Source: Pseudomonadales bacterium
Lineage (GTDB): Bacteria > Pseudomonadota > Gammaproteobacteria > Pseudomonadales > IMCC2047
Reading direction: 5' to 3'
Assembly (NCBI GenBank): GCA_021736745.1
Contig: JAIPFG010000001.1
Span: forward strand, 1 to 52,253
DNA length: 52,253 bases
Position numbers and translations under genes: made by a program. Below are positions 6,534 to 49,683 of the stretch, one piece after another (positions within the stretch are counted from its first letter, which is position 1; each line of letters begins with the position of its first letter). The notes under the pieces are model-generated. The model searched no databases, had not been told where the DNA came from, and saw only the letters and a list, made by a program, of their open reading frames with translations.

Positions 6534-6880
6534 TCTTTATCCCCCCAGGACCAGGACGGCGTTACTTGTTTTTCCTTACTTGGCAAAGAGGCGCGTTGTC
6601 TGACTTTCCCGCGCATTTTTGCCTGCTGAATGGGACTAATGACCGGTGCCGGCGCCAGACCGTCGATCCGTTCAAATAAATCGAGTGCGCGCAGAACGCG
6701 GATGAAGTTGGACAGCTGGGTAGATCGACCTTTTTCCAGGCGCTGGATCGTGGGTACGGACACGCCTGCTTCCATGGCCAAAGCTTCCTGGGTCATGTTT
6801 TTATTCAAACGATAACGGGCGATTCTGGACCCCAGCTCGAGTAAGACCGCCTTATCGGACATCTCTTTTGAAATAGTCAT
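6530..6880 (-). CDS. hipB: HipB-like XRE-family HTH antitoxin
   Basis: XRE helix-turn-helix (MTQEALAMEAGVSVPTIQRLEKG). 116 aa. ATGA overlap with hipA. Confidence 0.85.
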   Translation of the reverse strand: MTISKEMSDKAVLLELGSRIARYRLNKNMTQEALAMEAGVSVPTIQRLEKGRSTQLSNFIRVLRALDLFERIDGLAPAPVISPIQQAKMRGKVRQRASLPSKEKQVTPSWSWGDKE

Positions 6881-22203: not shown

Positions 22204-22243
22204 AGCCCTGTTCCCCTTATGATATTTTTTAAATGAAAGCTGA

Positions 22244-24598: not shown

Positions 24599-24898
24599 TT
24601 TAGCTTCCTCCGAACTGAACACCTGTTCTGTCATGTCGAAACCAAATCCCTGTAGCCTAATGTACTCTGAAGAAAACGCGATGTCGAATGAAGAGGTAAA
24701 GAAGTATTTTATGATCACTGCGTTAATCAATCTTATGATTGCGGTAATTACGGTGAGCCTAATATTCCCCCCCGTTAAGCGCCGGCAGGGTTTTTAGCAA
24801 AATACCCGGCCAATTATTCAATTGGCCACTATACTGAAGCAAAGCGTTTTTTAATGATCTGACCATTTCGGATAATAATAAATTGAGATTGGAATTAA

Positions 24899-33530: not shown

Positions 33531-34517
33531 TTATTCGGCATTAATATCGACGATCACACGTCCGCGTATTTCACCCTTGGTTATTTTTTCGGCATATTCG
33601 GGAATCTGAGAAAAACGAATGGTTTTGCTGATCTTTTCCCAGAATGTCGTTTCAAAAAGTTCAGATAATTGCTGCCACATATTCAACCGATGTTCCTTGG
33701 TGACGAGGGTGGAGTTTATTCCCAATAATTTAATAGCTCGCAGAATAAAAGGCATAACAGTAGTATGCAGCTCGTGGCTGGCGGCGAGGCCGCAACTGGC
33801 GATGGCGCCATTTCCCTTGGTTTCGGCGATGATTTTCGCGAGAATTTGACCACCGACATTATCCACGGCCCCCGCCCATTTTTGAGATTCCAGGGGGCGT
33901 GCACTCTGGGGCATCTGTTCTCGACTGATGATGTCTGACGCACCTAATTCGCGCAGATATTGGTGTAATTCTTCACGTCCGGTCACAGCGGTAACGGAAT
34001 AACCCATTCTTGCGAGGATGGCAATGGCAATGCTGCCAACGCCCCCTGCAGCACCAGAGACAACGATGGGCCCCTGGTCGGGGGTGATCCCGGCTTTTTG
34101 CAGGGCAGCAACGGCCAGCATTGCCGTAAATCCGGCGGTGCCTACCGCCATGGCGTCCTGTGGTCTGAAGGCGGTCGGGAGCTTGATCAGTGCCTCCGTA
34201 TCGACCCGAGCTTTTTGCGCATACCCACCGCAATAATCCTCGCCTAAACCCGCACCGGTTAGCACTACCGCATCACCCACCTTAAATTCGCTGGTGTCTG
34301 AATCAATCACCGTTCCGGCTAAATCAATACCCGGGATCATGGGGTAGGATCGGAGTATTTTGCCTTTCCCGGTAACGGCCAGACCGTCTTTAAAATTAAG
34401 GCTGGAGTAAGCCACTTCCACTAATACCGGTTTGTCAGGCAGTTGTTCTTCCCGCCAATGCTCGTAGGTTGCGCGATGTTGGCCATCCACTTTGTCGACG
34501 ACGATTGCTTTAAACAT
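33531..34517 (-). CDS. YhdH/AcuI-family NADPH-dependent enoyl (acrylyl-CoA-type) reductase, MDR superfamily
   Basis: MFKAIVV...SSLNFKDGLA...VSGAAGGVGS, with the N-terminal pattern typical of the YhdH/YhfP subgroup. Confidence 0.8.
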   Translation of the reverse strand: MFKAIVVDKVDGQHRATYEHWREEQLPDKPVLVEVAYSSLNFKDGLAVTGKGKILRSYPMIPGIDLAGTVIDSDTSEFKVGDAVVLTGAGLGEDYCGGYAQKARVDTEALIKLPTAFRPQDAMAVGTAGFTAMLAVAALQKAGITPDQGPIVVSGAAGGVGSIAIAILARMGYSVTAVTGREELHQYLRELGASDIISREQMPQSARPLESQKWAGAVDNVGGQILAKIIAETKGNGAIASCGLAASHELHTTVMPFILRAIKLLGINSTLVTKEHRLNMWQQLSELFETTFWEKISKTIRFSQIPEYAEKITKGEIRGRVIVDINAE

Positions 34518-34523
34518 ATTTGT

Positions 34524-34691
34524 CTACCTCATGGCGATCATTTCAAAGTCTTTTTTGGCGGCGCCACAATCCGGGCAAAGCCAGTCTTCGGGCACCTCTT
34601 CCCAGGGGGTTCCGGCGGGGATGCCTTCTTCAGGGCAACCTTTGGCTTCATCATAAATCCAGCCACAGACAATGCATTGCCACTTTTTCAT
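34524..34691 (-). CDS. Rubredoxin (55 aa; not in the supplied ORF track)
   Basis: My own translation is [55 protein letters not shown]. It has both CxxCG knuckles and the conserved Y, W and F residues. AGAGGA RBS upstream of the ATG. Confidence 0.9.
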
Positions 34692-34709: not shown

Positions 34710-35249
34710 CTATTTAAACAGTGTGACGATTTCTTTAAACACCGGATGATCTGCCGTTTTCATCAATTCAAACAGGCAGGTTTCGGTGCTGGTCAAGTGC
34801 GCTCCGGCGGTCTTCATTTTTTCTAGGCCCAACTGTTTATTTTCAGGTGAGCGCGAAGAGACGGCATCACACACTACATGGACTTCCTTTTGCAGCCGCA
34901 TTAAATCCAGTGCCGATTGATAAACACAGACATGGGTTTCAATGCCGGTGACCAACATCTGGTTTCTTCCACTTGCGACCATAGCCTGTAGGAGTTTGTC
35001 GTTGCCAAAGCAACTAAAACTGGTTTTGGCGATGGGTCTTAGGTCAGTGAGCAGTTCCGAAATTTCCGGTAATGTGGAGCCTAGTTTTTCCGGTATTTGT
35101 TCGGCCCAAAGAATGGGGATACCCATAGCCTGGGAGGCTTTAATCATGGTTTTCAGGTTGGCCAGGTAAGCTTCTTTATCGTGCATAAGCGTGGCGAGTT
35201 TACCTTGAACATCGATGATGACTAACAGTGAGTTTTCCGTAGTTAACAT
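34710..35249 (-). CDS. Isochorismatase-family (cysteine hydrolase) protein
   Basis: LLVIIDVQ, and VTGIETHVCV carrying the catalytic Cys. Confidence 0.85.
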   Translation of the reverse strand: MLTTENSLLVIIDVQGKLATLMHDKEAYLANLKTMIKASQAMGIPILWAEQIPEKLGSTLPEISELLTDLRPIAKTSFSCFGNDKLLQAMVASGRNQMLVTGIETHVCVYQSALDLMRLQKEVHVVCDAVSSRSPENKQLGLEKMKTAGAHLTSTETCLFELMKTADHPVFKEIVTLFK

Positions 35250-35276: not shown

Positions 35277-36068
35277 TCAGTCAGCATCTTTTATCTTACC
35301 GGTATCAATGAACCCATAGATACCACGTTTTGATACAGCATTAAGCCATTCTTTCAAATGGGCAATCTCCGCTGTATTGGATAGGTCTGACAAAGGTTTA
35401 TTTTCTTTGAGACAGCGAAAGGCCCTAGATAGCGCCTTATAACGTTCTCCTGAAATTCCCGCTCGGCGCAGGCCGATTGTATTCAGTCGGTAATGACGCA
35501 CGGGTGAACCACCGATCAGCGTATAGGGTAATACATCTTTACGAATACCAATGACTCCGGCGATCATAGCGAACGAACCAATACGACAGAACTGGTGGAC
35601 CATGGCGCCACCGCCGAAGAAAACGCGGTCGCCCACCTGGACATGACCGCCGAGCGTAGCGCTGGTGGCGAAGATATTGTGATTGCCAACCAGACAATCA
35701 TGGGCAACGTGGGCATTATTCATAAAGAAGCAATGGTTGCCGATCCGGGTGGCTTCGTTTTCCCTGGTGGCGCGGCTAATGGTGACTCCCTCACGAAACT
35801 CATTATGATCGCCTATTTCTACCCAGCTTGTGAGCGCTGGATTAAAGCTCAGATCCTGCGGTGATCCGCCAATAACAGCATTGGCATGCACACGATTCTG
35901 TTCCCCCATACGCACATGGGAGTGGATAATTGCATGGGCATCAATATGGCAGTTTTTTCCAATAACGACCTGCTCACCAACAATTGCATAGGGGCCGATG
36001 GTTGTTCCTTGGCCAATTTGAGCTGTGGGGGAGATGATTGCACTAGGGTGGATAGTGGAAGATGTCAT
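35277..36068 (-). CDS. LpxA-like acyl-ACP--UDP-GlcNAc O-acyltransferase paralogue (left-handed beta-helix)
   Basis: Hexapeptide repeats. NNAHVAHDCLVGN (compare E. coli INAHIAHDCTVGN with the catalytic His), MVHQFCRIG, and the C-terminal helical LpxA domain (NTIGLRRAG). Confidence 0.8.
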   Translation of the reverse strand: MTSSTIHPSAIISPTAQIGQGTTIGPYAIVGEQVVIGKNCHIDAHAIIHSHVRMGEQNRVHANAVIGGSPQDLSFNPALTSWVEIGDHNEFREGVTISRATRENEATRIGNHCFFMNNAHVAHDCLVGNHNIFATSATLGGHVQVGDRVFFGGGAMVHQFCRIGSFAMIAGVIGIRKDVLPYTLIGGSPVRHYRLNTIGLRRAGISGERYKALSRAFRCLKENKPLSDLSNTAEIAHLKEWLNAVSKRGIYGFIDTGKIKDAD

Positions 36069-36107: not shown

Positions 36108-36734
36108 TTAATCAATAATACGTGCCATTGCGCGTCGGCAATCGGCTATTTCCGTAAATCTGATGGCCTGGATGCCCAAATTATTTGCCGACTCAACATT
36201 GGCGGGCAGGTCATCAATAAAAAGGGTCTCTTCGGGGAGGATGTCAAAACGATTTAACATGTATTTAAAAATTTCAGGATCCGGTTTGGCGAGTTTGACC
36301 TCTGCCGAGACAATGATATCTTCAAAGAGATCAAAAAAGGTATAGCGTGAGGCGAGGTGCTCGAATATTTCCATACAAATATTCGAAAGGCAAAATAAGC
36401 GGTGTCCCTGTTGATGTAGCTCTGAGAGCAAGGCGACGGTCTCTTCTTTAGGAGTCAAATACGCCTTAATTGCATCAAGCAGTGCTTTTATTCTTGATAA
36501 AGGAAGGGCTGTATTGCGGGCAAAAGACTGGATTGCTTGTTGTTCTGTTATTGCTCCAAGATCGAGGCGTTTCCAGTCCTGGTGATGGAAAACCTGATCG
36601 AGTAACAGTTGTTTTTGCATTTCGTCCTGCGCAAATTGTTGAGCAATCTCTTCTGGACTCCAATGCACGAGTACAGCGCCTAAATCAAAAACTGTGTTTT
36701 TAATCGTGGCAGGTTTTAGCTTGAGTTGATTCAT
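36108..36734 (-). CDS. HAD-superfamily hydrolase (subfamily IA)
   Basis: Motif I VFDLGAVLV, motif II LSN, and the motif IV region FIDDLPANV. Confidence 0.85.
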   Translation of the reverse strand: MNQLKLKPATIKNTVFDLGAVLVHWSPEEIAQQFAQDEMQKQLLLDQVFHHQDWKRLDLGAITEQQAIQSFARNTALPLSRIKALLDAIKAYLTPKEETVALLSELHQQGHRLFCLSNICMEIFEHLASRYTFFDLFEDIIVSAEVKLAKPDPEIFKYMLNRFDILPEETLFIDDLPANVESANNLGIQAIRFTEIADCRRAMARIID

Positions 36735-36764: not shown

Positions 36765-37412
36765 TTAGGGCTTAGTGCAAACACGTTGAAAGCCAGCCGC
36801 AATAAAAGGAATCATGTGGTCATAGGCTGCCCTAAAGTCAGTTGACTTACAAAGTCCCTTGGACAGTTTGTCGATGCGTCCGGTTTGTGCCAAGGTAAGG
36901 GTGAGTGCACCTGACAGGTTGTGATAGCACCAATAAATATCTTCTTCCTTAGCGCCGGGCAAAGCCTTCTTAAGCGCCTCGATAAATCGTGTGACCAGTG
37001 GGTCAAAATATTTGCTCATTAACTCCTTACCCCAAATAGGTGAGTTGTTGATATAGGCGACAAGCGCGAGATAGTGTTTCCAACCAGGATCAGCATTTTC
37101 CTGTTCCATTTCGAGTGGCCGCAAAAAAGCTTCAATAATTTTCTCAACGCTGGGGCCTTCCGTTCCGGATTCGGACTGGCATTTGAGTAACGCCTCCAGA
37201 CGCTCCTCATTCAGTATTTCAGCACGACGTAAAAAGACTGCATCGAATAATTCACGTTTTTTGCCAAAGTGGTAGCTGGCGAGGGCGACATCAACCTGCG
37301 CTTGGGCGGCAATCTGGCGTATGGTGACACCGTCAAAGCCATGCAAAGCAAAGAGTTCTTCCGCTGCATCAAGAATACGTTCTTTTTTTGATCTCTTTTG
37401 AGCGTTGTTCAT
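36765..37412 (-). CDS. TetR/AcrR-family transcriptional regulator
   Basis: N-terminal HTH ILDAAEELFALHGFDGVTIRQIAAQAQVDVALASYHFGKK. I prefer the ATG at 37412. The ORF track uses a TTG at 37424. Confidence 0.9.
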   Translation of the reverse strand: MNNAQKRSKKERILDAAEELFALHGFDGVTIRQIAAQAQVDVALASYHFGKKRELFDAVFLRRAEILNEERLEALLKCQSESGTEGPSVEKIIEAFLRPLEMEQENADPGWKHYLALVAYINNSPIWGKELMSKYFDPLVTRFIEALKKALPGAKEEDIYWCYHNLSGALTLTLAQTGRIDKLSKGLCKSTDFRAAYDHMIPFIAAGFQRVCTKP

Positions 37413-37441: not shown

Positions 37442-37488
37442 TTAATAAGGCTTTATCCAGTGGTTGACAAAATTCAACAAATGTTGAA
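37442..37488. promoter_or_regulatory. Divergent promoter region with palindromic operator TTCAACAAATGTTGAA (37473-37488)
   Basis: Overlapping -35 hexamers: TTGACA on + at 37464-69, and TTGTCA on - at 37465-70 with a 17 nt spacer to TATTAA (37442-47). The operator abuts these. The same palindrome recurs at 41721, 41754 and 42019. Confidence 0.5.
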
Positions 37489-37536
37489 AACTGGGCTCTT
37501 CACATCATACCACAACTGATATAGAGGTCGAAGGAC

Positions 37537-39009
37537 GTGTCCCCAGAACTGTTTAAGTATCTTGTCACCGGTGTCTATGTCATCGCAACTTTTGTACTCT
37601 CCTGGATCGGAATGCGGCGAACTAATGACTTGCGCGGATTCTCCATCGGCAATAAGGATATGAATCCCTATCTGATTGGCGTTACTCTCGCGGCTTCCAT
37701 TGCTTCGACGGCAACCTTTGTTATCAACCCAGGTTTTGTTTACATCCATGGTCTGTCTGCCTTTCTGCATTATGGGGTGGCGGCATCATCCGGCATATTA
37801 GCCGCTTTTTTGATTCTCACCCGAGGATTTTTACGACTGGGGGATCAACATGGGGCGTTAACCATTCCGGAATGGATTTACCATCGCTACCAGCACCGTG
37901 GGTTTAGTTTGTTCTTTGCCTTTATTAATTTGCTTTCGATAACATTTGTCGTATTGATTCTGGTGGGCTGTAGTTTGCTGATGATGAGTCTTTTTGGTAT
38001 CGAGCGTGAAACTGCTTTGATATTGATTCTGCTCTTTGTTTTTTCCTACGTGCTGATGGGTGGTACCTATGCCCATGCTTATACCAATACCTTGCAGGGC
38101 GTGATGATGCTGGGCATCAGTTTGTTTCTGTTTATTAATGGTTTTAAATATTTTGATGACGGTATTCTTACGTCACTGGAACAATTAGGAGCCAATTACG
38201 CAAAGGTTTACAACCCCGATAGTAATCTCTACTACGATTTTTTCTCCGTATTTGGCAGTGGTTTTATCATTACTTTCGCGCTGATGTTGCAGCCCCATAT
38301 CCTGACCAAAACTCTGTATTTGCGTCACGAAGGGGATATTAATAAATTCATTATTACAACGGTGGTTGTCGGTTTTTGTTTTGCCTTGATGCTGATGCTG
38401 GGTTTCTATGCGCAAATGGCCGGTGTTGATGTTTCCAGTCAGGACCGAGTGGTGACAGAATATTTATTGGTAGAATTTTCCGGCTCCCATTGGGGACAAT
38501 ATATTTTGACCTTTGTTTTTATCACTTTACTTGCAGCCGGTATGAGTACCCTGGATGGCATTCTGGTTTCTCTCTCGGCAATGGTCGTTAACGATATTTA
38601 TCAACCCCTGTTTGGCGACAGTAACGGCCGTCATGGACTGTTGCTGTCACGTATTGTGTTGGTGCTGGTGGGTATTATTGCCGGTTTGTTGGCTTGGAAG
38701 CCACCTGAACTGGTAGGACTTTTTGCGCAAAAAGGGGTTTATGGCTTGGCCGCCGCGTCATTGGTGCCTCTCCTGTTTGGGGTAATGATCAAGCGCCAAC
38801 TACCACTATGGGTTATCGCTATGTGCGCTTTTTCCGCGCTGGCTATTCATCTCGTGTTTAATCTTTTCATGGGTGTCGCTAACCCGGCAGTTTCTGCCAG
38901 CTATGCAATTCTTATTTCATTTACCATGGGATTAGTTTCGCTTTGGGTGTTACCGTTGTTCGCTAAACCTAAAGTGCCCAAAGTGATAAATGAACCGGAG
39001 TCCCCTTAA
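37537..39009 (+). CDS. Sodium:solute symporter (SSS) family transporter
   Basis: 490 aa with about 13 TM helices. The N-terminal pattern and overall layout are typical of the PutP/PanF/ActP-type SSS family. GTG start. Confidence 0.8.
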   Translation: MSPELFKYLVTGVYVIATFVLSWIGMRRTNDLRGFSIGNKDMNPYLIGVTLAASIASTATFVINPGFVYIHGLSAFLHYGVAASSGILAAFLILTRGFLRLGDQHGALTIPEWIYHRYQHRGFSLFFAFINLLSITFVVLILVGCSLLMMSLFGIERETALILILLFVFSYVLMGGTYAHAYTNTLQGVMMLGISLFLFINGFKYFDDGILTSLEQLGANYAKVYNPDSNLYYDFFSVFGSGFIITFALMLQPHILTKTLYLRHEGDINKFIITTVVVGFCFALMLMLGFYAQMAGVDVSSQDRVVTEYLLVEFSGSHWGQYILTFVFITLLAAGMSTLDGILVSLSAMVVNDIYQPLFGDSNGRHGLLLSRIVLVLVGIIAGLLAWKPPELVGLFAQKGVYGLAAASLVPLLFGVMIKRQLPLWVIAMCAFSALAIHLVFNLFMGVANPAVSASYAILISFTMGLVSLWVLPLFAKPKVPKVINEPESP

Positions 39010-39243
39010 CCCGTCAATCAGGACGTGAAGGCCTAAAAGCATACTTTCGCGATACGTCGTTATATCACAGACAATCAGATAATGTCAGTTTGAACAACGG
39101 GCTGCTATGTTGGGGACTTTAAGGTTGATTTCCACACGGCCTGTGTTGAGATAATGTGAAAGTTGGCCGCTCCTCGAACCACTAAACTTTCCGGAGGAAG
39201 GTCGGAGAAGGCAATAACCGTTTTGGAGTCATGCATCGGCCAT

Positions 39244-39269
39244 AAAAAAAGGGGGCTGAATTAGCCCCC
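39244..39269 (-). terminator. Rho-independent terminator of the TonB receptor gene
   Basis: On the minus strand: GGGGGCTAATTCAGCCCCC followed by TTTTTTT, 22 nt after the stop at 39292. Confidence 0.8.
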
Positions 39270-39291
39270 GTTAGGTTCTGCAAGAGGTATC

Positions 39292-41589
39292 TTAGAACTG
39301 GTAGGAAACCCCTAAAGTCCAGGTTCTCGGTGGGCCATAGAACGCGAGTTCACCCGACCCCAGATTGTAGCCTCCGGTTTTATATTCTTTATCTTCAATA
39401 TTCTTCAAATAAAGACTCACCTGCCAGTGTTCATCGACAGAAAGCCAGTTGGCACTAGCGTCCCACAGGGTGTAAGAATCATCTTGATCGCAAGTACAGG
39501 TCACATTGTTGAAGTTTCGAGAGCCATCGCGATAAGCCACTGCCGTATTCAATGCAAGAGAGCCGGCGTTACCGAAGTCGAAATGGTAATTTAACCCCAA
39601 CTGTCCGGTCCAGTCTGGTGCGTTGAGCATTTCCCAGGTATCGGACACATCGACACCGGCTGAAATCACTTCGATTAACTCGGCGTTCATTTGGCCAACT
39701 GACAAAGAAATATTGAAAGCCTCTGTGACCTGCGCCAGCGCCTCAACTTCGAAGCCTTTGATTTCCGCGGTACCGGCATTCACGACGTCGGATGAGAAGA
39801 AAACAGGTGCCGGCTGAGCCGTTTGAACGGTTAGCTGCATATCGTCGTAGTCCATGTCGAATAGAGTGATGTTTAAGCGTAACCGATCATTGAACAATTG
39901 GCTTTTAATACCAACTTCCAAGGTTTCTACTGTCTCTGGATCGTAACCATTAGCGACATTCGGGTTAAGTGCCGCATTACCCCGCATATCAAAACCACCG
40001 GATTTGAATCCTTCCGCGTAGCTGACATAAACCATAATATCTTCTGTAATTTTCCAATCGACCTTGATCGAAGGACTGACTTCGCTCCAGCTGTCATCGG
40101 CTTCATCATCACTGATATTGGTAGAAGCCCCTAAGAAAACATCATCCGCAGGATTACCAAAGGTAAAGCCTGAACCTTGTGTCGTAGTGTAAGGGAATGA
40201 ATTACTGGTGATATAGGATATCCGCTGGATATTGGAGTTTTTGTCATCGCGGGTAACACGAGCGCCTGCGGTGATCGTGATCGTTTCGGTGAGATTAAAA
40301 CTACCGTTAAAATAAGCAGATAAACTTTCGGTATCGACATCACCGCCGATCGCCAGATCAAAATGATTCCCATCCATATAGGGAGGCGCGTTTAGCACGA
40401 CGTCAAATGCGCCGGCGGAATTACCTTCAAAATAATAAATACCTCCGACCAGAGTAAAGCGCTCAGCGGTGTAATTTACCTGAAGTTCATGGGATTGTTG
40501 TTCATCCGAATATTTGGCGGGAACATCAAAGGCATCCAAGGGTGTTGATTCAAAATCAATAAACTGCTGTGTTTCACCTTCGCGGTCGGCATACACATAC
40601 TTGATAGAAAGCGCATCATTAATGTCATATTTAGCGGTAATAGAAAACCCTTCGTTCTCGACATTAGACTTATGAGAAGTCCCACAGGCGCCATCATAGG
40701 GATCGCTCGATGCGAGAAATGGCAAACCGGTTGCAGGGTGGGTCAACAGTGTTTGGCTGGACTGGGAGCCGCAGAGTTGGTTGGACTCGTCATCTGTTTT
40801 GTCGGCGGCGAAACGTAAAAAAAGCTTTTCGGTGGGTGTGTATTCAACATTCAGACGATAGACCAAGACATCTTTTTCATAGTTTTCTTCGCTATCGGTG
40901 AAAGTGCCAGTGGCTATATCGTAACCCGTATCCACATCACCGTAACCATCCCGATCCATCTTGGCAACAGCGGCGCCAACATAGAGTTGATTTTCGATCA
41001 GGGGTAATTGGCCGGAGATCATGACGTCCTGCTGATTATCTGTGCCAACGGCCAGTTTTATTTTAGCGGTGGCGTCTCCGGTCATTTTTTTAGTAATGTA
41101 TTTTAGCGCACCGCCGACGGTATTTTTTCCATAAAGGGTACCCTGTGGACCCCGCAGGATTTCGATACGATCGACATCAAAAACTTCTAATACGGCGGCT
41201 TGGGGGCGTGCGTAATAGACATCGTCAACATAAACCCCGACGCCAGGTTCGAAGCCCCAGAGGGGGTCTTGCTGGCCGACTCCACGGATATAGGCGGTTA
41301 AGGTTGAGTTGGTTGCGCGACTGGCGCGTAGCTGTGTATTCGGTGAGCTTTTTTCCAGGTCGATAATGCTGGTGTACCCTTTATTCTCCAATTCTAAAGC
41401 GCTGAATGCCGTAATGGAAACAGGCACTTCTTGCTGGTTTTGCTCACGTTTTTGTGCAGTGACAATGATCTCCTCCAGACTGGGGTTGCTACCCTCTTTA
41501 GCCCAGCTAATACCCGGATTGATTGCCGCGATACTGGTGGCAGCGATAAATGTGACAAGTGGTTTCTTGCTGAGATGTGAAATATTCAT
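39292..41589 (-). CDS. TonB-dependent outer-membrane receptor
   Basis: Signal peptide, plug (EEIIVTAQKRE...DRIEILRGPQGTLYGKNTVGG), and C-terminal GVSYQF. Confidence 0.9.
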   Translation of the reverse strand: MNISHLSKKPLVTFIAATSIAAINPGISWAKEGSNPSLEEIIVTAQKREQNQQEVPVSITAFSALELENKGYTSIIDLEKSSPNTQLRASRATNSTLTAYIRGVGQQDPLWGFEPGVGVYVDDVYYARPQAAVLEVFDVDRIEILRGPQGTLYGKNTVGGALKYITKKMTGDATAKIKLAVGTDNQQDVMISGQLPLIENQLYVGAAVAKMDRDGYGDVDTGYDIATGTFTDSEENYEKDVLVYRLNVEYTPTEKLFLRFAADKTDDESNQLCGSQSSQTLLTHPATGLPFLASSDPYDGACGTSHKSNVENEGFSITAKYDINDALSIKYVYADREGETQQFIDFESTPLDAFDVPAKYSDEQQSHELQVNYTAERFTLVGGIYYFEGNSAGAFDVVLNAPPYMDGNHFDLAIGGDVDTESLSAYFNGSFNLTETITITAGARVTRDDKNSNIQRISYITSNSFPYTTTQGSGFTFGNPADDVFLGASTNISDDEADDSWSEVSPSIKVDWKITEDIMVYVSYAEGFKSGGFDMRGNAALNPNVANGYDPETVETLEVGIKSQLFNDRLRLNITLFDMDYDDMQLTVQTAQPAPVFFSSDVVNAGTAEIKGFEVEALAQVTEAFNISLSVGQMNAELIEVISAGVDVSDTWEMLNAPDWTGQLGLNYHFDFGNAGSLALNTAVAYRDGSRNFNNVTCTCDQDDSYTLWDASANWLSVDEHWQVSLYLKNIEDKEYKTGGYNLGSGELAFYGPPRTWTLGVSYQF

Positions 41590-41720
41590 AATACACCTAT
41601 TTTCGAGCCTGAAATTTAAACTTGCTTGCTACCTGGGTTTAGGTAGTCAAGCCCCCCCGCGAAAGCAGTTCTCTTGTCTTGTAAAACGGAGCATCAAGGG
41701 CCGCTGCTTTAACATAAAAA

Positions 41721-41776
41721 TTCAACAAACGTTGAATAATTAACGCAACGATATTCAACACCTGTTGAAATGTCAA
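41721..41776 (-). promoter_or_regulatory. Promoter of TonB receptor gene with two palindromic operators
   Basis: On the minus strand: TTGACA (41771-76), a 17 nt spacer, then TATCGT (41748-53). Operator TTCAACACCTGTTGAA (41754-69) fills the spacer. Operator TTCAACAAACGTTGAA (41721-36) lies 11 nt downstream of the -10. Confidence 0.55.
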
Positions 41777-41979
41777 GTTATATAGAAAGTTATCAAAAGC
41801 TTTTTTATAGCCATCATTTGTTCTTCCTTTGCATTTTTTTGTATCAGACGGTGATTATCTAATAAGAAAATCGATCCGGTTCAGAAATATCAGGATACCG
41901 GTTATTGATGGTGGCGTAATGGAACTTGAGCCATTCGCGTGAAATCAGACGTATTCTATATTTGGAGTACTCTTGATGC

Positions 41980-42034
41980 TTGACATTTAATCCTTGGTTG
42001 AATAATGTATTTATAAATTTCAACAAACGTTGAA
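41980..42034 (+). promoter_or_regulatory. Promoter of acyl-CoA synthetase operon with one degenerate and one exact palindromic operator
   Basis: TTGACA (41980-85), a 17 nt spacer, then TAATGT (42003-08). The spacer holds TTAATC-CTTG-GTTGAA (41987-42002, 10/12 match). The exact TTCAACAAACGTTGAA (42019-34) lies 10 nt downstream of the -10. Confidence 0.55.
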
Positions 42035-42141: not shown

Positions 42142-43734
42142 TTGGAGAAACATAGCGTGAAATCAATTCAATCCCCAGCGCCTCTGCTGCCAGAAATACT
42201 TTATTTGCATAGCAAATGGTTAGGGACTAAGGAGGCTGTGATTTGTGGCGATCGACGTCTGAGCTGGATGGAGTTTGGGGCGCGAATTAATGCGGTAGCG
42301 AACAGTTTTATCGCCCAGGGATTGCAAACTGGCGACAAGGTCATCGTGCTCATGGGCAACGGCTTACCAATGCTGGAAACGCTATTTGGCATAATGGTGT
42401 CTGGCGGTGTTTCTGTTCCGATTAACCTGTCTGTTTCGACGGAGGGTTTGAATAATATGATCAAGGACGCTGCCGCAAAGTTTGTCGTGGCAACGGGAGA
42501 TCAGTTTCAGCGTATTGAATCAATGGCAGCGGACCTACCGGAAGATCATTGTTCTGTTCGTATAGTCGCCCAGGGAAACCCGGAGAGCGGCATTGTTAAG
42601 GGCTGGGTAGATTATGAAAAGTTTGTTGCCGCTGGATCACCGTATTTTCCAGATGTTGCGATACAGCCTACGGACTACCTTAATGTCATTTATAGTTCAG
42701 GAACCACCGGGTTACCTAAGGGCATTGTACATACGCATCAGGGACGTCGCGATTGGGCTTATGATATGGCCATTGCCTTGCGCTATCATGGCAGTGCAAA
42801 AACGCTGCTTACCATTGGCCTGTATTCCAATATTTCTTGGGTTGCCATGTTAACAACGTTGCTGGCAGGGGGTACTTTGGTGATCCATCAGCATTTTGAT
42901 GCAAGACAGTTTTTGCGCACGGTGGAGGAAGAACGCATTACCCATACTGCCATGGTACCGATTCAGTTCCAACGGGTGATCGAGGCCTACCAGGAGCAAT
43001 CCAGCGACCTTTCATCAATGCAGGCAATGATGGCTTGTGGTTCGCCTTTGTTTGAGCCCCTGAAAAAAGCCATATTTGAGGTTTTCTCCTGTGGCATTAT
43101 TGAACTCTATGGCCTGACGGAAGGCATTATCACGACACTTGAACCGGAAGAGGCCGAAGGTCGATGGACTTCTGTAGGCAAACCGCTGATTGGCACGGAT
43201 ATCAAAATCCTGGGAGACGATGACCTGGAAGTGGCACCAGGAATGAGTGGCGAAATAGTTTCCCGCGGAAGGATTAGCATGCCGGGTTATCTTAATCGGC
43301 CGGACGCCACAGAGGAAGCCATTTGGTTGGATGAGGCCGGGCGACAATGGCTTCGTTCAGGCGATATCGGAAGAATTGATGAGCAGGGTTATCTGTATAT
43401 TGTCGACCGTAAAAAAGACATGATTTTATCCGGTGGACAAAACATTTATCCGCAGGATATCGAAGCGGTATTGATTCAGCATGAGGCGGTGAATGAAGTG
43501 GCGGTGATTGGCGCGCAGAGTCGTCGCTGGGGAGAGACGCCAATTGCCATTGTCGTGCCTGAGACAAGTTCTATCGGTTCACCTGACGAAATTCTTGAGT
43601 GGTGTAATGCGCAATTGGGTAGGCAGCAACGTATTACCGATTTGATTTTGACCAATGCTTTACCGCGCAATCCCAATGGCAAAATACTGAAGCGCGAACT
43701 GCGCATCCAGTACGGAGAAAAAGTGTATGACTGA
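42142..43734 (+). CDS. Acyl-CoA synthetase / class I adenylate-forming enzyme
   Basis: YSSGTTGLPKG, YGLTE, SGDIG, and the C-terminal NPNGKILK lysine motif. The start is TTG at 42142 or GTG at 42157. Confidence 0.9.
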   Translation: MEKHSVKSIQSPAPLLPEILYLHSKWLGTKEAVICGDRRLSWMEFGARINAVANSFIAQGLQTGDKVIVLMGNGLPMLETLFGIMVSGGVSVPINLSVSTEGLNNMIKDAAAKFVVATGDQFQRIESMAADLPEDHCSVRIVAQGNPESGIVKGWVDYEKFVAAGSPYFPDVAIQPTDYLNVIYSSGTTGLPKGIVHTHQGRRDWAYDMAIALRYHGSAKTLLTIGLYSNISWVAMLTTLLAGGTLVIHQHFDARQFLRTVEEERITHTAMVPIQFQRVIEAYQEQSSDLSSMQAMMACGSPLFEPLKKAIFEVFSCGIIELYGLTEGIITTLEPEEAEGRWTSVGKPLIGTDIKILGDDDLEVAPGMSGEIVSRGRISMPGYLNRPDATEEAIWLDEAGRQWLRSGDIGRIDEQGYLYIVDRKKDMILSGGQNIYPQDIEAVLIQHEAVNEVAVIGAQSRRWGETPIAIVVPETSSIGSPDEILEWCNAQLGRQQRITDLILTNALPRNPNGKILKRELRIQYGEKVYD

Positions 43735-44611
43735 ATATCAGGATGTCTGGTATCCATCGGAGGATGGATTAACTCTGTATGCCCGGGATTATGAGCATCC
43801 CAAGGCCAGTCTTAATCTTCTCTGTATGCATGGCTTAACCCGCAATTCTGCAGACTTTGAAGCACTCTGTGATCATTTACATCCGCGTTATCGTCTGGTC
43901 GTGGTAGATCAGCGCGGGCGAGGTCGATCTGAGTATGACCCCGTAACCAGTAACTATCATCCGGGTACTTATGTGAAGGATATGTTCAGGCTGATTGAGC
44001 ATTTAAATCTCGATAATCTGGTGCTGATCGGCACTTCCCTGGGTGGATTGATGGCTATGATAATGGCAAGCCTGTTACCGGGAAAATTCAAGGGTGTGGT
44101 GTTAAATGATATTGGGCCAGTAATTGAGGCGGAGGGCATTTCCCGTATTCAGGGCTATGTTGGGAAAGGCTTGCCGGTAACAAATTGGGATGAAGCAATC
44201 GCCCAGGCACGCGCCATTAATGGTGCTGCGCTGATTGATTATAGCGAAGAGGACTGGTGGAATTTTGCACGTAAACTCTATCGTGAAAATGAAGAAGGCG
44301 TACCCGTTCTGAATTATGACCCTGCAATTGCCGAGCTGATGAATAACAGCCAGGCAAAGGCGGTACCGCCGGACTTATGGTTTGCCTTTGACGCGCTAAA
44401 AAATACGCCTTGCTTGGTTGTTCGGGGGGAAAGCTCAGATATTCTGAGTAAAGGCTGTGTCGAGGAAATGCAGCGTCGAAAATCGGATCTTCAGGTAGTG
44501 GAAATTGTTAACCGTGGACATGCGCCGATGTTGGATGAACCGCAAGCACTTGCTGCCGTCGATCAGTTTATGCAGGGAGTGGAGAAATCAGTAACAAAAT
44601 CCTTATCCTAA
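43727..44611 (+). CDS. Alpha/beta-fold hydrolase
   Basis: HGLTRNSADF, DQRGRGRS, the nucleophile elbow GTSLGG, and a C-terminal GHAPML. 8 nt overlap with the upstream ligase gene. Confidence 0.85.
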   Translation: MTEYQDVWYPSEDGLTLYARDYEHPKASLNLLCMHGLTRNSADFEALCDHLHPRYRLVVVDQRGRGRSEYDPVTSNYHPGTYVKDMFRLIEHLNLDNLVLIGTSLGGLMAMIMASLLPGKFKGVVLNDIGPVIEAEGISRIQGYVGKGLPVTNWDEAIAQARAINGAALIDYSEEDWWNFARKLYRENEEGVPVLNYDPAIAELMNNSQAKAVPPDLWFAFDALKNTPCLVVRGESSDILSKGCVEEMQRRKSDLQVVEIVNRGHAPMLDEPQALAAVDQFMQGVEKSVTKSLS

Positions 44612-44682: not shown

Positions 44683-45345
44683 TTAACGTTTACGCGCCAA
44701 AGTCAGTCCGTCACCAATAGGTATCAGGCTAATATCAACACGCTCATCCTTGAGTAACTGCCCGTTAAAGGTACGGATGGCACAGGTGTCAATATCCTGC
44801 TTATCCGGATTGATCACGTTGCCATTCCAAAGTACGTTGTCGACGGCGATCAGTCCTCCGGGGCGCACCAGAGTTAAGCAGCGTTCGTAATAATTCTGAT
44901 AGTTCTCTTTATCCGCATCGATAAAGGCAAAATCAAATTGATCCTGTTGGCCTTCGCACAATAGGTTGTCGAGAGTCTTTAAGGCGGGAGCCAGGCGTAA
45001 ATCTATTTTGTGTGCAACGCCCGCTTGCTGCCAGTAACGTTGGGCGATATTGGTCCAGCCTTCATCAATATCGCAGGCGATAATCTGTCCGTTATCGGGT
45101 AGCGCCGCAGCGACACATAAAGCGCTGTAACCGGTAAAGACGCCAACCTCAACGGTTCTTCTGGCGCCCAGCAATTTAATCAGCAGCGCCATAAATTGCC
45201 CTTGTTCCGGAGAAATCTGCATGCGCGCCAATTCTTCCTTGGCGGTTTCTTCGCGTAAGGCTTTCAGTAAGTCCGTTTCCCTGACGGAAACGGATTGAAG
45301 ATATTGGTGTAACTCCGGTGTGACCTGAATCGTGAAATGGCTCAT
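44683..45345 (-). CDS. Class I SAM-dependent O-methyltransferase (family 3, CCoAOMT-like)
   Basis: SAM motif VEVGVFTGYSAL, ACDIDE, and the metal/acceptor region FDFAFIDADKENY. Confidence 0.85.
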   Translation of the reverse strand: MSHFTIQVTPELHQYLQSVSVRETDLLKALREETAKEELARMQISPEQGQFMALLIKLLGARRTVEVGVFTGYSALCVAAALPDNGQIIACDIDEGWTNIAQRYWQQAGVAHKIDLRLAPALKTLDNLLCEGQQDQFDFAFIDADKENYQNYYERCLTLVRPGGLIAVDNVLWNGNVINPDKQDIDTCAIRTFNGQLLKDERVDISLIPIGDGLTLARKR

Positions 45346-45485
45346 AAGAAGTACCGCACAGATGAATCTCAGAATCAGTAAATTAATCTCAAATTACTGA
45401 GCCTTAGGGTTTTTGGTTTAGCCTCAAAGCATATAGAATGTTGTGCTTTACAGCAATTTGTCTTGGGTTTAAATCGGAATTAACT

Positions 45486-46640
45486 ATGTTGAAGCGGATG
45501 GTCTTGATGTTGCTCGGTGTCGTATTGGTATTTGGCGGCATTTTTGGTTACAAATTGGTCGAACGGCATTTTATGGGAGAATATTTTGCCAATTTTACTC
45601 CGCCACCCAGAGTGGTTTCTGCCGATTATGCGCGCGAAGAAATTTGGCAACCTTCTCTTTCTGCGATTGGTACTTTAAGGGCGGTCAATGGTGTTGATCT
45701 GAGTGGCGAGGTAGAGGGTAAGGTAAAGGCGATTCATTTTCAGTCTGGACAGTTCGTCAAGCAGGGGGCATTGTTGCTGGAAATTGATGATGAGGTGGAA
45801 CAGGCAAATTTGAAAAGTTTTCAGGCACGTTTGAAATTAGCCCAGTTGAACTTCCAGCGTGATGAAAAGTTGATTCAAAAACGACTGACTTCTCAGGAGC
45901 AGAGTGATCGTAGTCGTGCGGAGCTGGATGAAGTCTACGCTCTGGTGGAACAAACCAAAGCGACGATTGCAAAGAAAAAAATCAGGGCACCATTCGCTGG
46001 TAAGGTGGGAATTCGCAAGGTGAATCTGGGGCAGTACCTCTCCAAGGGTGACCCGTTAACGACGTTACAGGCGATGGACGCCTTTTACCTGGATTTTAGC
46101 TTGCCAGAGCAGGATTATACTCAGATCTACCTGAACCAGGAATTGACCTTCAGTGTTGATGCCTATCCCGGTGAGGCCTTTAAGGCCAGAGTGACAGCAG
46201 TTAACGCGAAAGTGGATGTCAGTACCCGCAGCATTCTGGTACGGGCTCAATTTGATAATTCGCAAGGACTGTTGTTACCGGGTATGTTCACCGCTGTAAA
46301 GCTGATGCTAAAACAAAATAATACTGTTGTGACGTTACCGCAAACCGCAGTCACCTTTTCCCTCTATGGAGAGTCGGTATTTAAAGTGGAGCAAAATGGC
46401 AAGAATGAAAAAGGTGAGCCTCAACTGGTTGCACAGCGTGTCAGTGTCGTCAGTGGCGATGTGAGGGGGGATCGAGTGGCTATCAAATCCGGGGTGGCCG
46501 TCGGCGATTTGATTGTCATTGATGGCCAGATCAAACTAAAGAATGGTACGGCGATCGCGCTTGCCAATAGTGAAGTTCTGGAGAGTAACAGGGCTGAGCT
46601 TAAACCGTCCAATGGCGATGCGTCTTATGAAGTTCACTGA
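45486..46640 (+). CDS. RND efflux periplasmic adaptor (MFP)
   Basis: N-terminal TM or signal (MLKRMVLMLLGVVLVFGG), lipoyl and coiled-coil halves, and IRAPFAGKVG. I prefer the ATG at 45486 over 45438. Confidence 0.85.
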   Translation: MLKRMVLMLLGVVLVFGGIFGYKLVERHFMGEYFANFTPPPRVVSADYAREEIWQPSLSAIGTLRAVNGVDLSGEVEGKVKAIHFQSGQFVKQGALLLEIDDEVEQANLKSFQARLKLAQLNFQRDEKLIQKRLTSQEQSDRSRAELDEVYALVEQTKATIAKKKIRAPFAGKVGIRKVNLGQYLSKGDPLTTLQAMDAFYLDFSLPEQDYTQIYLNQELTFSVDAYPGEAFKARVTAVNAKVDVSTRSILVRAQFDNSQGLLLPGMFTAVKLMLKQNNTVVTLPQTAVTFSLYGESVFKVEQNGKNEKGEPQLVAQRVSVVSGDVRGDRVAIKSGVAVGDLIVIDGQIKLKNGTAIALANSEVLESNRAELKPSNGDASYEVH

Positions 46641-49600
46641 TCTGTTTATCAAAAGGCCGGTGCTGGCCACGGTCATTAATCTTTTTATTTTGTTGTTGGG
46701 TATTAATGCTTTTGACCAGTTGAGTATCCGTCAATACCCTAAGATTGAAGAAGCTGTAGTCACGGTATCAACCGTCTATGTCGGCGCCAGTACGGACCTG
46801 GTACAGGGGTTTATCACCACTCCGGTGCAACAGGCCATTGCCGGCGCCGAAGGTATTGACTATATCACCTCCAGCAGTGTGAACAGCAATTCCACTGTGA
46901 CGGCACATATTAACCCTGAATATGATTCTGATCAGGTGCTGACGGAAATTATGGCCAAGGTTGCAGAAGTCCGTGGTGAATTGCCGAAGGAGTCGGAAGA
47001 TTCTGTTATCAAAAAGGGAACCAGCAGGGGTTCTGCCTTGATGTATATCCGAGCCAATAGCGACACGATGACGGATGAACAGGTTACTGATTACTTGACT
47101 CGCGTCGTGGTGCCCAAACTGGCCACGTTAGAAGGGGTCGCCAGTGCCGAGATTTTTGGTGCGCGAAAATTTGCCATGCGGCTTTGGTTGGATCCACTGA
47201 AAATGGCAGCGCATGATATCACCGCCGATGAGCTTAACGCGGCTATTCGGCGTAACCACTTTCTCTCTACGGCGGGGCAAACCAAGGGAGAATGGATAGC
47301 GACTCAGGTGAAAGCCTATACGGACCTGAGTACGGTGGAAGGTTTTGAAAATATCGTGGTAATTCAGGAAGGCGATGTCTTGGTAAAAGTGAAGGATGTT
47401 GCCAAGGTTGAGCTAAGTGCTGAAAATTTCGATAGTGGTGTTTTCTTTAATGGTAATCCAGCGGTCTTTATCGGTGTTTCGGCTACACCCACGGCAAACC
47501 CGCTTGAGGTCAGCCAGCGAGTAAAGACGTCACTGGACAAACTGCAATCGGAATTGCCCGCAGGCACGGAAGTGGAAGTGATCTATGATTCCACCAAATT
47601 TATTCGGGCATCTATCAATGAGGTGGCGAAGACACTGCTGGAAGCCTCGTTAATCGTCATCTTGGTGGTCTTCCTATTTTTAGGTGAAATCCGTACGGTC
47701 ATTATCCCGGTGGTGGCCATTCCGTTGTCACTCGTGGGTACTATCTTCCTCATGTGGACGTTGGGCTATTCCGTTAATTTACTCACACTGTTGGCGCTGG
47801 TATTGGCTATTGGCTTAGTGGTGGATGATGCCATCGTGGTGGTTGAAAATATTCATCGCCATATTGAAGAAGGTTTATCACCGGTACAAGCGGCAATTCA
47901 GGGAGCCCGGGAAATTGCCACCCCTGTTATTTCCATGACACTAACTCTGGCTGCCGTGTATGCACCGATTGGGTTTCTCACGGGCATCACCGGGACCTTG
48001 TTCAGTGAATTTGCCTTTTCTTTGGCGGGTGCGGTTATCATTTCTGGCGTGGTCGCGTTGACCCTGTCGCCCATGATGTGTTCAAAACTTATGCATGGCG
48101 GCAAAGAGGAAAGTGCTCTGGCTAAGAAGTTAGATGTTATGTTTGGCCGGCTAAAAAATACTTATCAAGGGGTTCTTCGCAACACGCTGAATTACCGCCC
48201 AGTGGTGGTTGTGTTTGCCTTGTTGGTGTTAGTGAGCATCCCCTTTTTGATGATGTTTACGCGCAGCGAACTGGCGCCACAGGAAGATCAGGGGTCGTTA
48301 TTCTTGGCATCAAAGGCGCCAAATTATGCCAACATCAACTATCTCAACCGGCATACTGAGAATTTTGATACGATTTTTAAAAAGTTATCCGAATTTGAGG
48401 TATCGGTGAGAGTAAACCGATCGGGGACACAAAATTCATCCTTCAGTGTGCTGGGGCTTACTCCCTGGGATGAGCGGCAACGTACAGCCATGGAAATTCA
48501 GCCCTTAGTGCAGGCTGAGGTCGATAAAATCCCGGGTATTGATGTGTTCATTTTTGCCCGTGAATCCTTACCGGGCGCAGGTGGTGGTGCGCCGATTCAA
48601 TTTGTGATCAATACGACCAGTGATTACCCTTCGTTGGCGCAACTGGCGGATCAGATGGCGTTAGAGGCACGTAAAAGTGGTCTTTTTATGTTTATTGATA
48701 GTGATCTGAAATTTTCAAAGCCAGAAGTGCGAATTTCCATTGATCGGGATAAAGCCGCACAGATGGGAATCAGTATGGAGGCCATTGGCTCGGCACTCTC
48801 AACCCTGTTGGGCGAGGGTTGGTTAAACCGTTTTTCGGTGGAAGGCAGAAGTTATAAAGTCATACCCCAGGCGACCGCCGATGCCAGAAGGGATCCGTCC
48901 TGGTTGAATCATTATTACGTTAGAACGGTGAGCGGTGAACAGGTAACACTCGGTACGGTCATTAGTATGAAAACGATAGCCCAGCCAGTAAGTCTGAACC
49001 AGTTTCAGCAGCTTAACTCTGTGAAGTTGGAAGGCATGATGGTGCCTGGAGTGAGCTTGGGTGAGGCATTACAATTTCTCGAACGTAAGGCGCAGGAAAT
49101 ACTCCCGGAAGGTTTTTCGGTGGATTATGACGGTCAGTCGAGACAATTCGTTACTGAAGGCAGCAAGTTGTATCTTACTTTTGCGTTATCGCTGATTGCT
49201 ATTTTTCTGGTATTGGCAGCCCAGTTTGAAAGCTTTCGGGATCCACTGGTGATCCTGATCAGCGTCCCACTATCGATTTGTGGTGCGTTAATCCCGATCA
49301 CATTGGGGTTTGCCACCATGAATATATACAGCCAGATAGGACTGATCACTCTGATAGGTTTAATCAGTAAACACGGGATACTGATCGTTGAATTTGCTAA
49401 CCAGCTGCAAACGGAAGGAATGTCCCGACTTGATGCCATCAGTGAGGCGGCCTCGGTACGCTTACGCCCGGTATTAATGACGACAGCGGCAATGGTATTA
49501 GGTGTCGTTCCCCTGATTTTGGCCTCAGGAGCGGGGGCAGTGAGTCGGCATAACATTGGCTTGGTCATTGCTACAGGAATGACAGTAGGGACCCTGTTTA

Positions 49601-49683
49601 CACTTTTTGTCGTGCCGGTGGTCTACAGTTATGTGGCGAAAGACCATCAGCAAACGCCAGCAGCAGCTGCTTTATCCCATTAA
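46627..49683 (+). CDS. RND efflux inner-membrane permease (AcrB/MdtB-like)
   Basis: It starts MKFTDLFIKRPVLATV, the canonical RND N-terminus. 12-TM layout with two large periplasmic loops. 14 nt overlap with the adaptor gene. The ORF-track start at 46543 is an upstream extension. Confidence 0.9.
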   Translation: MKFTDLFIKRPVLATVINLFILLLGINAFDQLSIRQYPKIEEAVVTVSTVYVGASTDLVQGFITTPVQQAIAGAEGIDYITSSSVNSNSTVTAHINPEYDSDQVLTEIMAKVAEVRGELPKESEDSVIKKGTSRGSALMYIRANSDTMTDEQVTDYLTRVVVPKLATLEGVASAEIFGARKFAMRLWLDPLKMAAHDITADELNAAIRRNHFLSTAGQTKGEWIATQVKAYTDLSTVEGFENIVVIQEGDVLVKVKDVAKVELSAENFDSGVFFNGNPAVFIGVSATPTANPLEVSQRVKTSLDKLQSELPAGTEVEVIYDSTKFIRASINEVAKTLLEASLIVILVVFLFLGEIRTVIIPVVAIPLSLVGTIFLMWTLGYSVNLLTLLALVLAIGLVVDDAIVVVENIHRHIEEGLSPVQAAIQGAREIATPVISMTLTLAAVYAPIGFLTGITGTLFSEFAFSLAGAVIISGVVALTLSPMMCSKLMHGGKEESALAKKLDVMFGRLKNTYQGVLRNTLNYRPVVVVFALLVLVSIPFLMMFTRSELAPQEDQGSLFLASKAPNYANINYLNRHTENFDTIFKKLSEFEVSVRVNRSGTQNSSFSVLGLTPWDERQRTAMEIQPLVQAEVDKIPGIDVFIFARESLPGAGGGAPIQFVINTTSDYPSLAQLADQMALEARKSGLFMFIDSDLKFSKPEVRISIDRDKAAQMGISMEAIGSALSTLLGEGWLNRFSVEGRSYKVIPQATADARRDPSWLNHYYVRTVSGEQVTLGTVISMKTIAQPVSLNQFQQLNSVKLEGMMVPGVSLGEALQFLERKAQEILPEGFSVDYDGQSRQFVTEGSKLYLTFALSLIAIFLVLAAQFESFRDPLVILISVPLSICGALIPITLGFATMNIYSQIGLITLIGLISKHGILIVEFANQLQTEGMSRLDAISEAASVRLRPVLMTTAAMVLGVVPLILASGAGAVSRHNIGLVIATGMTVGTLFTLFVVPVVYSYVAKDHQQTPAAAALSH

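Follow-up and report, generated by a model that had tools for sequence, protein, structure and literature searches.

The subject of this study is a putative TetR-controlled regulon in a 52,253-bp stretch of DNA, referred to here as the window, from a metagenome-assembled genome of an uncultured bacterium of the order Pseudomonadales (GenBank assembly GCA_021736745.1, contig JAIPFG010000001.1, positions 1 to 52,253). The regulon is marked by a 16-bp inverted repeat, TTCAAC-N4-GTTGAA, that recurs around the gene of a TetR-family regulator (tetR, 36765..37412, minus strand) and its neighbours: a sodium:solute symporter, a TonB-dependent receptor, an acyl-coenzyme A (acyl-CoA) ligase and an alpha/beta hydrolase. 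A search of all 52,253 bp with the pattern TTCAACNNNNGTTGAA yields four exact matches, at 37473-88, 41721-36, 41754-69 and 42019-34. The same positions and sequences had been reported in an initial annotation of this DNA. Dinucleotide-preserving shuffles (n = 100) contain 0.01 such palindromes on average and none reaches four; a chance or low-complexity origin is rejected on these grounds. When two mismatches are allowed, a further site appears at 41987-42002, TTAATCCTTGGTTGAA, which matches 10 of the 12 specified bases and had likewise been noticed before. The other two-mismatch matches begin at 38846, within the symporter gene, and at 51883, within an aminotransferase gene; about three are expected, and these two, intragenic and at background frequency, were rejected as operators. 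All four exact palindromes lie between genuine genes, as the initial annotation had claimed. The open reading frames (ORFs) that overlap them, 37474-37770 (minus) and 41309-41743 (plus), are merely mechanical calls, antisense over the starts of the symporter gene and the receptor gene, respectively.

Genes and promoters of the locus

The regulator (MCF7980369.1) comprises 215 amino acids, with an N-terminal helix-turn-helix (HTH) domain, TetR_N (PF00440, residues 17-63, 57.3 bits against a cut-off of 24), and a C-terminal TetR_C_30 domain (PF17939, 128 bits). The symporter gene (37537..39009, plus; SSF family, Pfam 135 bits) is transcribed divergently from tetR, and its product is annotated merely as hypothetical; the window proteins are MCF7980367-373. 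Convergent with the symporter gene is that of the TonB-dependent receptor (39292..41589, minus), recognized by plug and barrel domains and by a signal peptide at the N-terminus. An intergenic region of 552 nt separates the receptor gene from that of the AMP-forming acyl-CoA ligase (42157..43734, plus; Pfam 237 bits). The likely ligase start is the GTG at 42157 and not the TTG at 42142: the GTG keeps the reading frame, with a Shine-Dalgarno sequence, GGAGAA, 7 nt ahead of it. The protein that begins at the TTG is absent from the public collection, in which four of the five other window proteins looked up are present. The ligase gene overlaps by 8 nt the gene of the alpha/beta hydrolase (43727..44611, plus), which carries a GTSLGG nucleophile motif. 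Because it lacks a signal peptide, the hydrolase is predicted to be cytoplasmic. Searches of the PDB with the ligase, hydrolase and receptor gave no informative close relative. The solved structures nearest to the ligase are FadD13 and feruloyl-CoA synthetase; the nearest to the hydrolase is 3BWX, a structural-genomics protein of unknown function.

Consensus scanning places the palindromes in the spacers between -35 and -10 hexamers and over transcription start sites, which agrees with the earlier claim that they sit in promoters. At such positions, a bound protein would block RNA polymerase. In the receptor promoter (41748..41776, minus), TTGACA (41776-41771) and TATCGT (41753-41748) are separated by a 17-nt spacer made up of 1 nt plus an operator, O1 (41754-41769). 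A second operator, O2 (41721..41736), starts 12 nt downstream of the -10 hexamer, 33 bp centre-to-centre from O1. The CoA-ligase promoter (41980..42008, plus) reads TTGACA (41980-85), a single t, a degenerate O1 (41987-42002) and TAATGT (42003-08); its exact O2 (42019..42034) starts 11 nt downstream of the -10 hexamer (10 nt between) and 32 bp from O1. A single exact site, TTCAACAAATGTTGAA (37473..37488), appears to serve the promoters of tetR and the symporter gene, which point in opposite directions. On the symporter side, it begins 3 nt past a putative -35 hexamer, TTGACA (37464..37469, plus), and fills the spacer; the candidate -10 hexamer is weak (AAAACT, 37487-92). On the other side, the putative tetR promoter found by the consensus scan (37504..37531, minus) consists of TCGACC, 16 nt, and TATGAT with an upstream TG. 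Here the operator lies 16 nt downstream of TATGAT and covers roughly +5 to +20. Both the TTGACAAAA-operator arrangement of the symporter side and the putative tetR promoter are kept in the close relatives L001-L003.

The ligase-side operators vary among relatives. The window combines a 10/12 O1 with an exact O2, L116, the nearest relative, has a 7/12 O1 with O2, and L003 has an exact O1 without O2. Given these differences, the 10/12 site is correctly placed and apparently without strong selection; it looks like a decaying O1. The 552-nt intergenic region was also considered as the seat of an RNA element or riboswitch. This was rejected, since the region has no Rfam match and the fold of the leader is no better than that of shuffled sequence (z = +1.2). 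The 5' leader of the receptor gene does contain a hairpin, GCUUGACUACCU-aaaccc-AGGUAGCAAGC (41624-41652, minus). From this hairpin through the start codon the leader is conserved in L116 and partly in L003, and some of the changes preserve the stem.

Conservation of the operator and its regulator

Orthologues of the regulator (68-84% identical) served as anchors for 80 genomic loci, 1.33 Mb in all, with GC contents of 43-68%. They come from Halieaceae, Arenicella, Agarilytica and unclassified metagenome-assembled genomes (MAGs), and one additional locus brings the set to 81. The 81 loci hold 190 exact sites, 186 of which precede tetR, the symporter gene (SSS) or the TonB-dependent receptor gene (TBDR) by no more than 400 nt. 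None falls in core coding sequence, and the remaining four are found at contig ends that cut the receptor short. Counted over the 80 loci, 187 sites are exact, 21 have one mismatch and 25 have two (187/233 exact). The arms of the palindrome are almost invariant, the centre is variable (R-n-n-Y) and the flanks are A/T-rich. A centre that varies between fixed arms points to protein contact rather than RNA structure. The motif was found in 79 of the 80 genomes, and an exact site lies 260 nt or less upstream of tetR in 75 of the 80 loci. Where tetR has been relocated away from the symporter gene (L043, L060 and L063), it carries its own one-mismatch site about 50 nt upstream.

Synteny is equally constant: tetR, one site, the divergent symporter gene, a pair of sites 27-34 bp apart, and a receptor-ligase-hydrolase operon. 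Most of the 80 loci have tetR and the symporter gene pointing away from each other, and the median distance from the operator down to the symporter start is 42 nt. In nearly all loci, the gene ahead of that of the hydrolase encodes the ligase or the receptor. The promoter layout cTTGACA-n-O1-TAnnnT-(7-12 nt)-O2, in which O1 fills the 17-nt spacer, is shared by about 50 genomes, and both promoters of the window follow it too. Most genomes have receptor, ligase and hydrolase in one operon behind one such dual-operator promoter. In the window, L003 and L116, the receptor gene is inverted relative to the ligase-hydrolase pair, with a copy of the promoter on each side. The targets proposed in the initial annotation, namely the symporter, the TonB receptor and the CoA-ligase/hydrolase operon, are those found in the orthologous loci. 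Its description of a regulon visible in raw sequence also holds, as the operator and promoter layout is near-invariant over a wide GC range. By gene content, the conserved regulon is predicted to be tetR, the SSS symporter, the TonB receptor and the alpha/beta hydrolase, together with either the acyl-CoA ligase or a 3-hydroxybutyrate dehydrogenase.

A metagenome collection was scanned independently of tetR for the combination of promoter and operator, TTGACANTTCAACNNNNGTTGAAT. The matches define 96 loci, 67 of which are the same tetR/symporter/receptor/ligase/hydrolase locus; among these, tetR itself is present wherever the contig extends far enough. The two search directions agree, so the motif and the TetR predict each other. 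This co-occurrence supports, in silico, the earlier proposal that the TetR at 36765-37412 is the cognate repressor. Ten of the 96 matches lie in a phage-like immunity region, considered below, and one (L131) is the promoter of a lone dehydrogenase gene, bdh. The rest of the roughly 29 off-locus matches were rejected as targets; they are on AT-rich contigs, fall within ORFs or lack an evident target gene, consistent with chance. Within the DNA examined, the predicted regulon is local.

The regulator has more than 3000 homologues, and the best 120 listed share 70-100% identity with it. The named ones belong to Halieaceae (Haliea, Halioglobus, Congregibacter, Parahaliea and Kineobactrum) and to Arenicella. 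An alignment of 27 homologues shows invariant helix-turn-helix residues. The AlphaFold model has ten helices and a mean predicted local distance difference test score of 75, with low confidence beyond residue 180, and its top Foldseek matches are all TetR-family repressors. Among solved structures, NicR2 (25-26% identity) and PsrA/PA3006 (24%) come closest. A 16-bp palindrome that overlaps the promoter of the regulator itself and has its half-site centres 10 bp apart is typical of the TetR family. A palindrome of about 15-17 bp over both target and own promoters was found computationally in the window and is kept in 80 of the 81 loci. By domain content, modelled fold and operator geometry, the regulator is predicted to be a standard TetR-family repressor.

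Proposed switch, rival explanations and substrate

The palindrome TTCAAC-N4-GTTGAA is very probably the operator of the adjacent TetR repressor. From the positions of the sites, their statistics, their conservation and the gene content of the loci, we infer binding and repression as follows. (i) A TetR dimer would contact two 6-bp half-sites with centres 10 bp apart. (ii) At the receptor and ligase promoters, which have one operator in the -35/-10 spacer and a second over the start, the bound repressor would exclude RNA polymerase. (iii) The single operator between tetR and the symporter gene would repress both promoters, making the regulator autoregulated. (iv) A small-molecule inducer in the C-terminal domain would release the repressor. 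(v) On induction, the cell would produce the outer-membrane receptor, the inner-membrane symporter, the cytoplasmic esterase-type hydrolase and the CoA ligase; other lineages would make 3-hydroxybutyrate dehydrogenase in place of the ligase.

A switch of this type is ordinary and well known. TetR on tetO and QacR are dimers that bind 15-17-bp palindromes, and such systems feature paired operators over a promoter, a shared divergent control region and ligand-driven release. They control efflux pumps against toxic compounds, whereas the regulator described here is predicted to control genes for import and catabolism. NicR2, the repressor of nicotine catabolism in Pseudomonas putida S16 (PDB 5FGL/5FHP), is the nearest structure in sequence as well as in fold (E 4e-16 and template modelling score about 0.7, respectively), and according to its title entry 5FGL was crystallized with the ligand Hsp. 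NicR2 differs in sequence, at 25-26% identity, and in its unrelated pathway and targets. Hsp is presumably 6-hydroxy-3-succinoylpyridine, a small carboxylated pathway intermediate. The fatty-acid-responsive PsrA of Pseudomonas aeruginosa (PA3006; PDB 2FBQ) has the same TetR_N and TetR_C_30 architecture. PsrA controls its own gene by way of a short palindrome in the promoter, with an operator geometry comparable to that of the present TetR. The targets differ: beta-oxidation genes for PsrA, and the TonB receptor, symporter and hydrolase genes here. A functional analogue of the locus is the sphingomonad polyethylene glycol operon pegBCADE, which differs in its enzymes and in its type of regulator. 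It includes an acyl-CoA ligase, and its regulator is of the AraC type. In that operon, a TonB-dependent receptor is combined with an inner-membrane permease for oligomeric substrates (PMC11644497).

Several points weigh against reading the palindrome as the operator of this TetR. The evidence is in silico throughout, and the genome-wide background and the distant members are known from about 1.3 Mb around tetR and one metagenome scan. In L078, the TetR is present and no site with two or fewer mismatches occurs. The palindrome does not belong to this TetR alone, for the same 24-mer is also found in the phage-like immunity region. That region, in ten contigs (L086, L097, L098, L099, L143, L146, L150, L160, L162 and L163) that are mutually homologous and unrelated to the TetR locus, has an XRE-type HTH repressor facing a CII-like gene, with TTGACAgTTCAACATTCGTTGAAT and an upstream ATTCAACAAAACG between them. 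An unrelated regulator seems to have arrived at the same palindrome by convergence.

The phage-like element makes recognition by a non-TetR protein plausible, and by extension the palindromes of the window might be bound by a transcription factor encoded elsewhere, with the adjacent TetR a mere neighbour. This is most improbable, given that motif and TetR co-occur in both directions of search at GC contents from 43 to 68%, that the relocated tetR genes keep a site of their own and that TetR-family regulators as a rule have a palindrome of this geometry over the promoter of their own gene. Least probable of all, to the point of being negligible, is an origin as structural or selfish DNA (REP-like repeats, hairpin terminators or mobile-element remnants) or by chance. 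The sites are perfect, short, intergenic inverted repeats, as such elements might be; however, chance is excluded by the shuffles, and the sites keep fixed distances from the -35 and -10 hexamers, upstream of genes and not at gene ends. A 6-bp stem without a T-run is no terminator, and the consensus scan lists no terminator at these places; the loop varies freely while the arms are invariant, and the region has no Rfam match.

A different alternative accepts the same TetR switch and changes what it controls. The locus might be a PsrA-like fatty-acid regulon that imports lipids or long- or medium-chain fatty acids, activates them with a FadD-like ligase and responds to a fatty acid or acyl-CoA. 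The TetR_C_30 family contains PsrA, which is also the second-nearest structure, and the best matches of the ligase are FadD13 and a 'long-chain-fatty-acid--CoA ligase' subfamily model. Such a regulon is nonetheless unlikely. The PsrA operator is G/CAAAC(N2-4)GTTTG/C, and its half-site, G/CAAAC, differs from TTCAAC (PMC10304680). The annotated core loci (the window, L081, L154 and L161) contain no fadBA, fadE or etf gene, and the lineages without the ligase carry 3-hydroxybutyrate dehydrogenase in its place, which is at odds with long-chain fatty acids. Identity of the regulator with PsrA itself was rejected: it scores 101.5 bits against the Vibrio PsrA equivalog NF053516, whose cut-off is 300, and is 24% identical to PA3006. 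The low equivalog score, the different half-site and the lack of beta-oxidation genes in the annotated loci together indicate that this TetR is not PsrA.

The clue to the substrate comes from the dehydrogenase. In L131, the same promoter and operator lie 85 nt upstream of a lone gene that scores 335.7 bits against TIGR01963, the NCBIfam model for 3-hydroxybutyrate dehydrogenase (cut-off 307). Homologues of this gene, 60-66% identical, come directly after tetR, in the same orientation, in L093, L125, L153 and L154. L161 has an SSS-TBDR-ABH-bdh operon (ABH, alpha/beta hydrolase) behind one operator, and its last gene passes TIGR01963 with 360.9 bits. The dehydrogenase genes of L154, L161 and L131 were scored against this model, and all three pass. 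The enzyme is thus found under the operator in three independent arrangements: tetR-bdh, SSS-TBDR-ABH-bdh and lone bdh. A ligase gene next after that of the receptor, and no dehydrogenase gene, is the pattern of 73 loci. In eight, the hydrolase follows the receptor directly, without a ligase, and the dehydrogenase is present in all five of those with visible flanks. The simplest reading of this complementarity is that ligase and dehydrogenase are two alternative entry enzymes for the same acid. The window receptor is 73-75% identical to receptors of the dehydrogenase-type sub-clade and 35-42% to those of Halieaceae; the window ligase and hydrolase are of the Halieaceae type (55-62% and 48-58% identity, respectively).

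The presence of a TonB receptor suggests that the substrate is too big, or available in amounts too small, for uptake through porins. From the gene content, esters or oligomers containing 3-hydroxybutyrate, for example breakdown products of poly-3-hydroxybutyrate (PHB), are a tentative but serious candidate for that substrate, with 3-hydroxybutyrate or a derivative as the inducer. The stronger proposal is somewhat doubtful, although possible: that the locus is a dedicated, high-affinity system, common among marine Halieaceae and their relatives, that scavenges 3-hydroxybutyrate esters or oligomers under a hitherto undescribed 3-hydroxybutyrate-responsive TetR. In such a system, the substrate would enter through the TonB receptor and the sodium symporter, the esterase would cleave it, and the CoA ligase or the dehydrogenase would feed the product into metabolism. 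This assignment of the substrate also has evidence against it. Neither the window nor the Halieaceae loci contain a dehydrogenase gene; they carry the CoA ligase instead. The hydrolase matches no characterized PHB or oligomer hydrolase; it is recognized by generic alpha/beta-hydrolase Pfam families only and scores 66 bits against the short-chain polyhydroxyalkanoate depolymerase equivalog (cut-off 300). TIGR01963 is a subfamily model, not an equivalog, and L131, with its lone gene, may have matched by chance. Literature searches found no paper on this regulator and nothing relevant on PHB oligomers taken up via TonB, on control of bdhA by a TetR, or on a halieacean TetR linked to a TonB receptor and an acyl-CoA synthetase; a search with the hexamers was non-specific.

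What stands out in this system is the near-invariance of operator and promoter layout across a wide range of GC content, which makes the regulon readable from sequence in Halieaceae (OM60/NOR5) and their relatives, an abundant coastal group. The operator appears to mark a compact five-gene uptake module, and the alternation of ligase and dehydrogenase leads to a testable hypothesis of a 3-hydroxybutyrate-type substrate. If this is correct, the locus would represent a TonB-dependent route for recycling storage-polyester debris at sea, and the tight repressor/operator pair could be used as a biosensor.

Neighbouring genes and other features

Five genes follow tetR on the minus strand. They encode a HAD hydrolase (36108-36734), an LpxA-like hexapeptide acyltransferase (35277-36068), an isochorismatase-like hydrolase (34710-35249), a rubredoxin (34524-34691; 55 residues, CPDCG motif, PF00301 79 bits), whose ORF is missing from the supplied list, and a YhdH/AcuI-family reductase (33531-34517). 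The gaps from tetR through the reductase gene are 30, 39, 27, 18 and 6 nt, and no terminator-like site was found between the genes of this tetR-headed operon. On this arrangement, we infer that the six genes are co-transcribed. The initial annotation had linked a six-gene operon to the regulon. Its count was right, and the sixth gene is that of the rubredoxin; the operon nevertheless falls outside the conserved regulon. The five-gene extension is confined to the window and its close relatives L001-L003, and in Halioglobus maricola tetR stands alone.

The terminal reductase invites comparison with the AcuR-acuI-dddL operon of Rhodobacter sphaeroides, in which a TetR regulator is co-transcribed with acrylyl-CoA reductase. 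The window operon likewise ends with a YhdH/AcuI-family reductase. This protein scores 427 bits against the AcuI equivalog (cut-off 440) and passes the YhdH subfamily cut-off. Unlike the AcuR system, the window shows no ddd genes, the PDB sequence matches of the regulator include no AcuR-like structure, and the linkage of reductase and tetR is limited to the window's close relatives.

The acyltransferase (35277-36068) passes both NCBIfam LpxA equivalog cut-offs (294 bits against 226 and 279 against 231). The match ends at residue 228 of 263, and the gene lies outside the usual lpxD-fabZ-lpxA-lpxB cluster, flanked by the HAD hydrolase and isochorismatase-like genes. The protein could be a second, specialized R-3-hydroxyacyl transferase.

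Elsewhere in the window, a second pair of TonB receptor (22244-24730, minus) and AMP-forming CoA ligase (20602-22203, minus) lies next to a PAS histidine kinase (24899-27625). This pair (20602-24730) is probably paralogous and under other control, since no site is nearby and identity to the regulated pair is 25-28%. Halioglobus maricola has a 54% homologue of the receptor at 22244-24730 next to its regulated locus (L081, 521-2848). Immediately after the hydrolase gene of the window, 44683-49683 encodes a caffeoyl-CoA-type O-methyltransferase (minus) and then an RND efflux pair, consisting of a membrane-fusion protein (45438-46640) and an AcrB-like protein (46543-49683), with no TetR operator nearby. 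Near the start of the window are genes for a protein with a TackOD1 domain ('Thaumarchaeal output domain 1'; 238-1539, plus), which is unexpected in a gammaproteobacterial MAG, and for a HipA-family toxin kinase (5229-6533, minus). A small ORF upstream of the latter (6530-6880) may encode its HipB partner.

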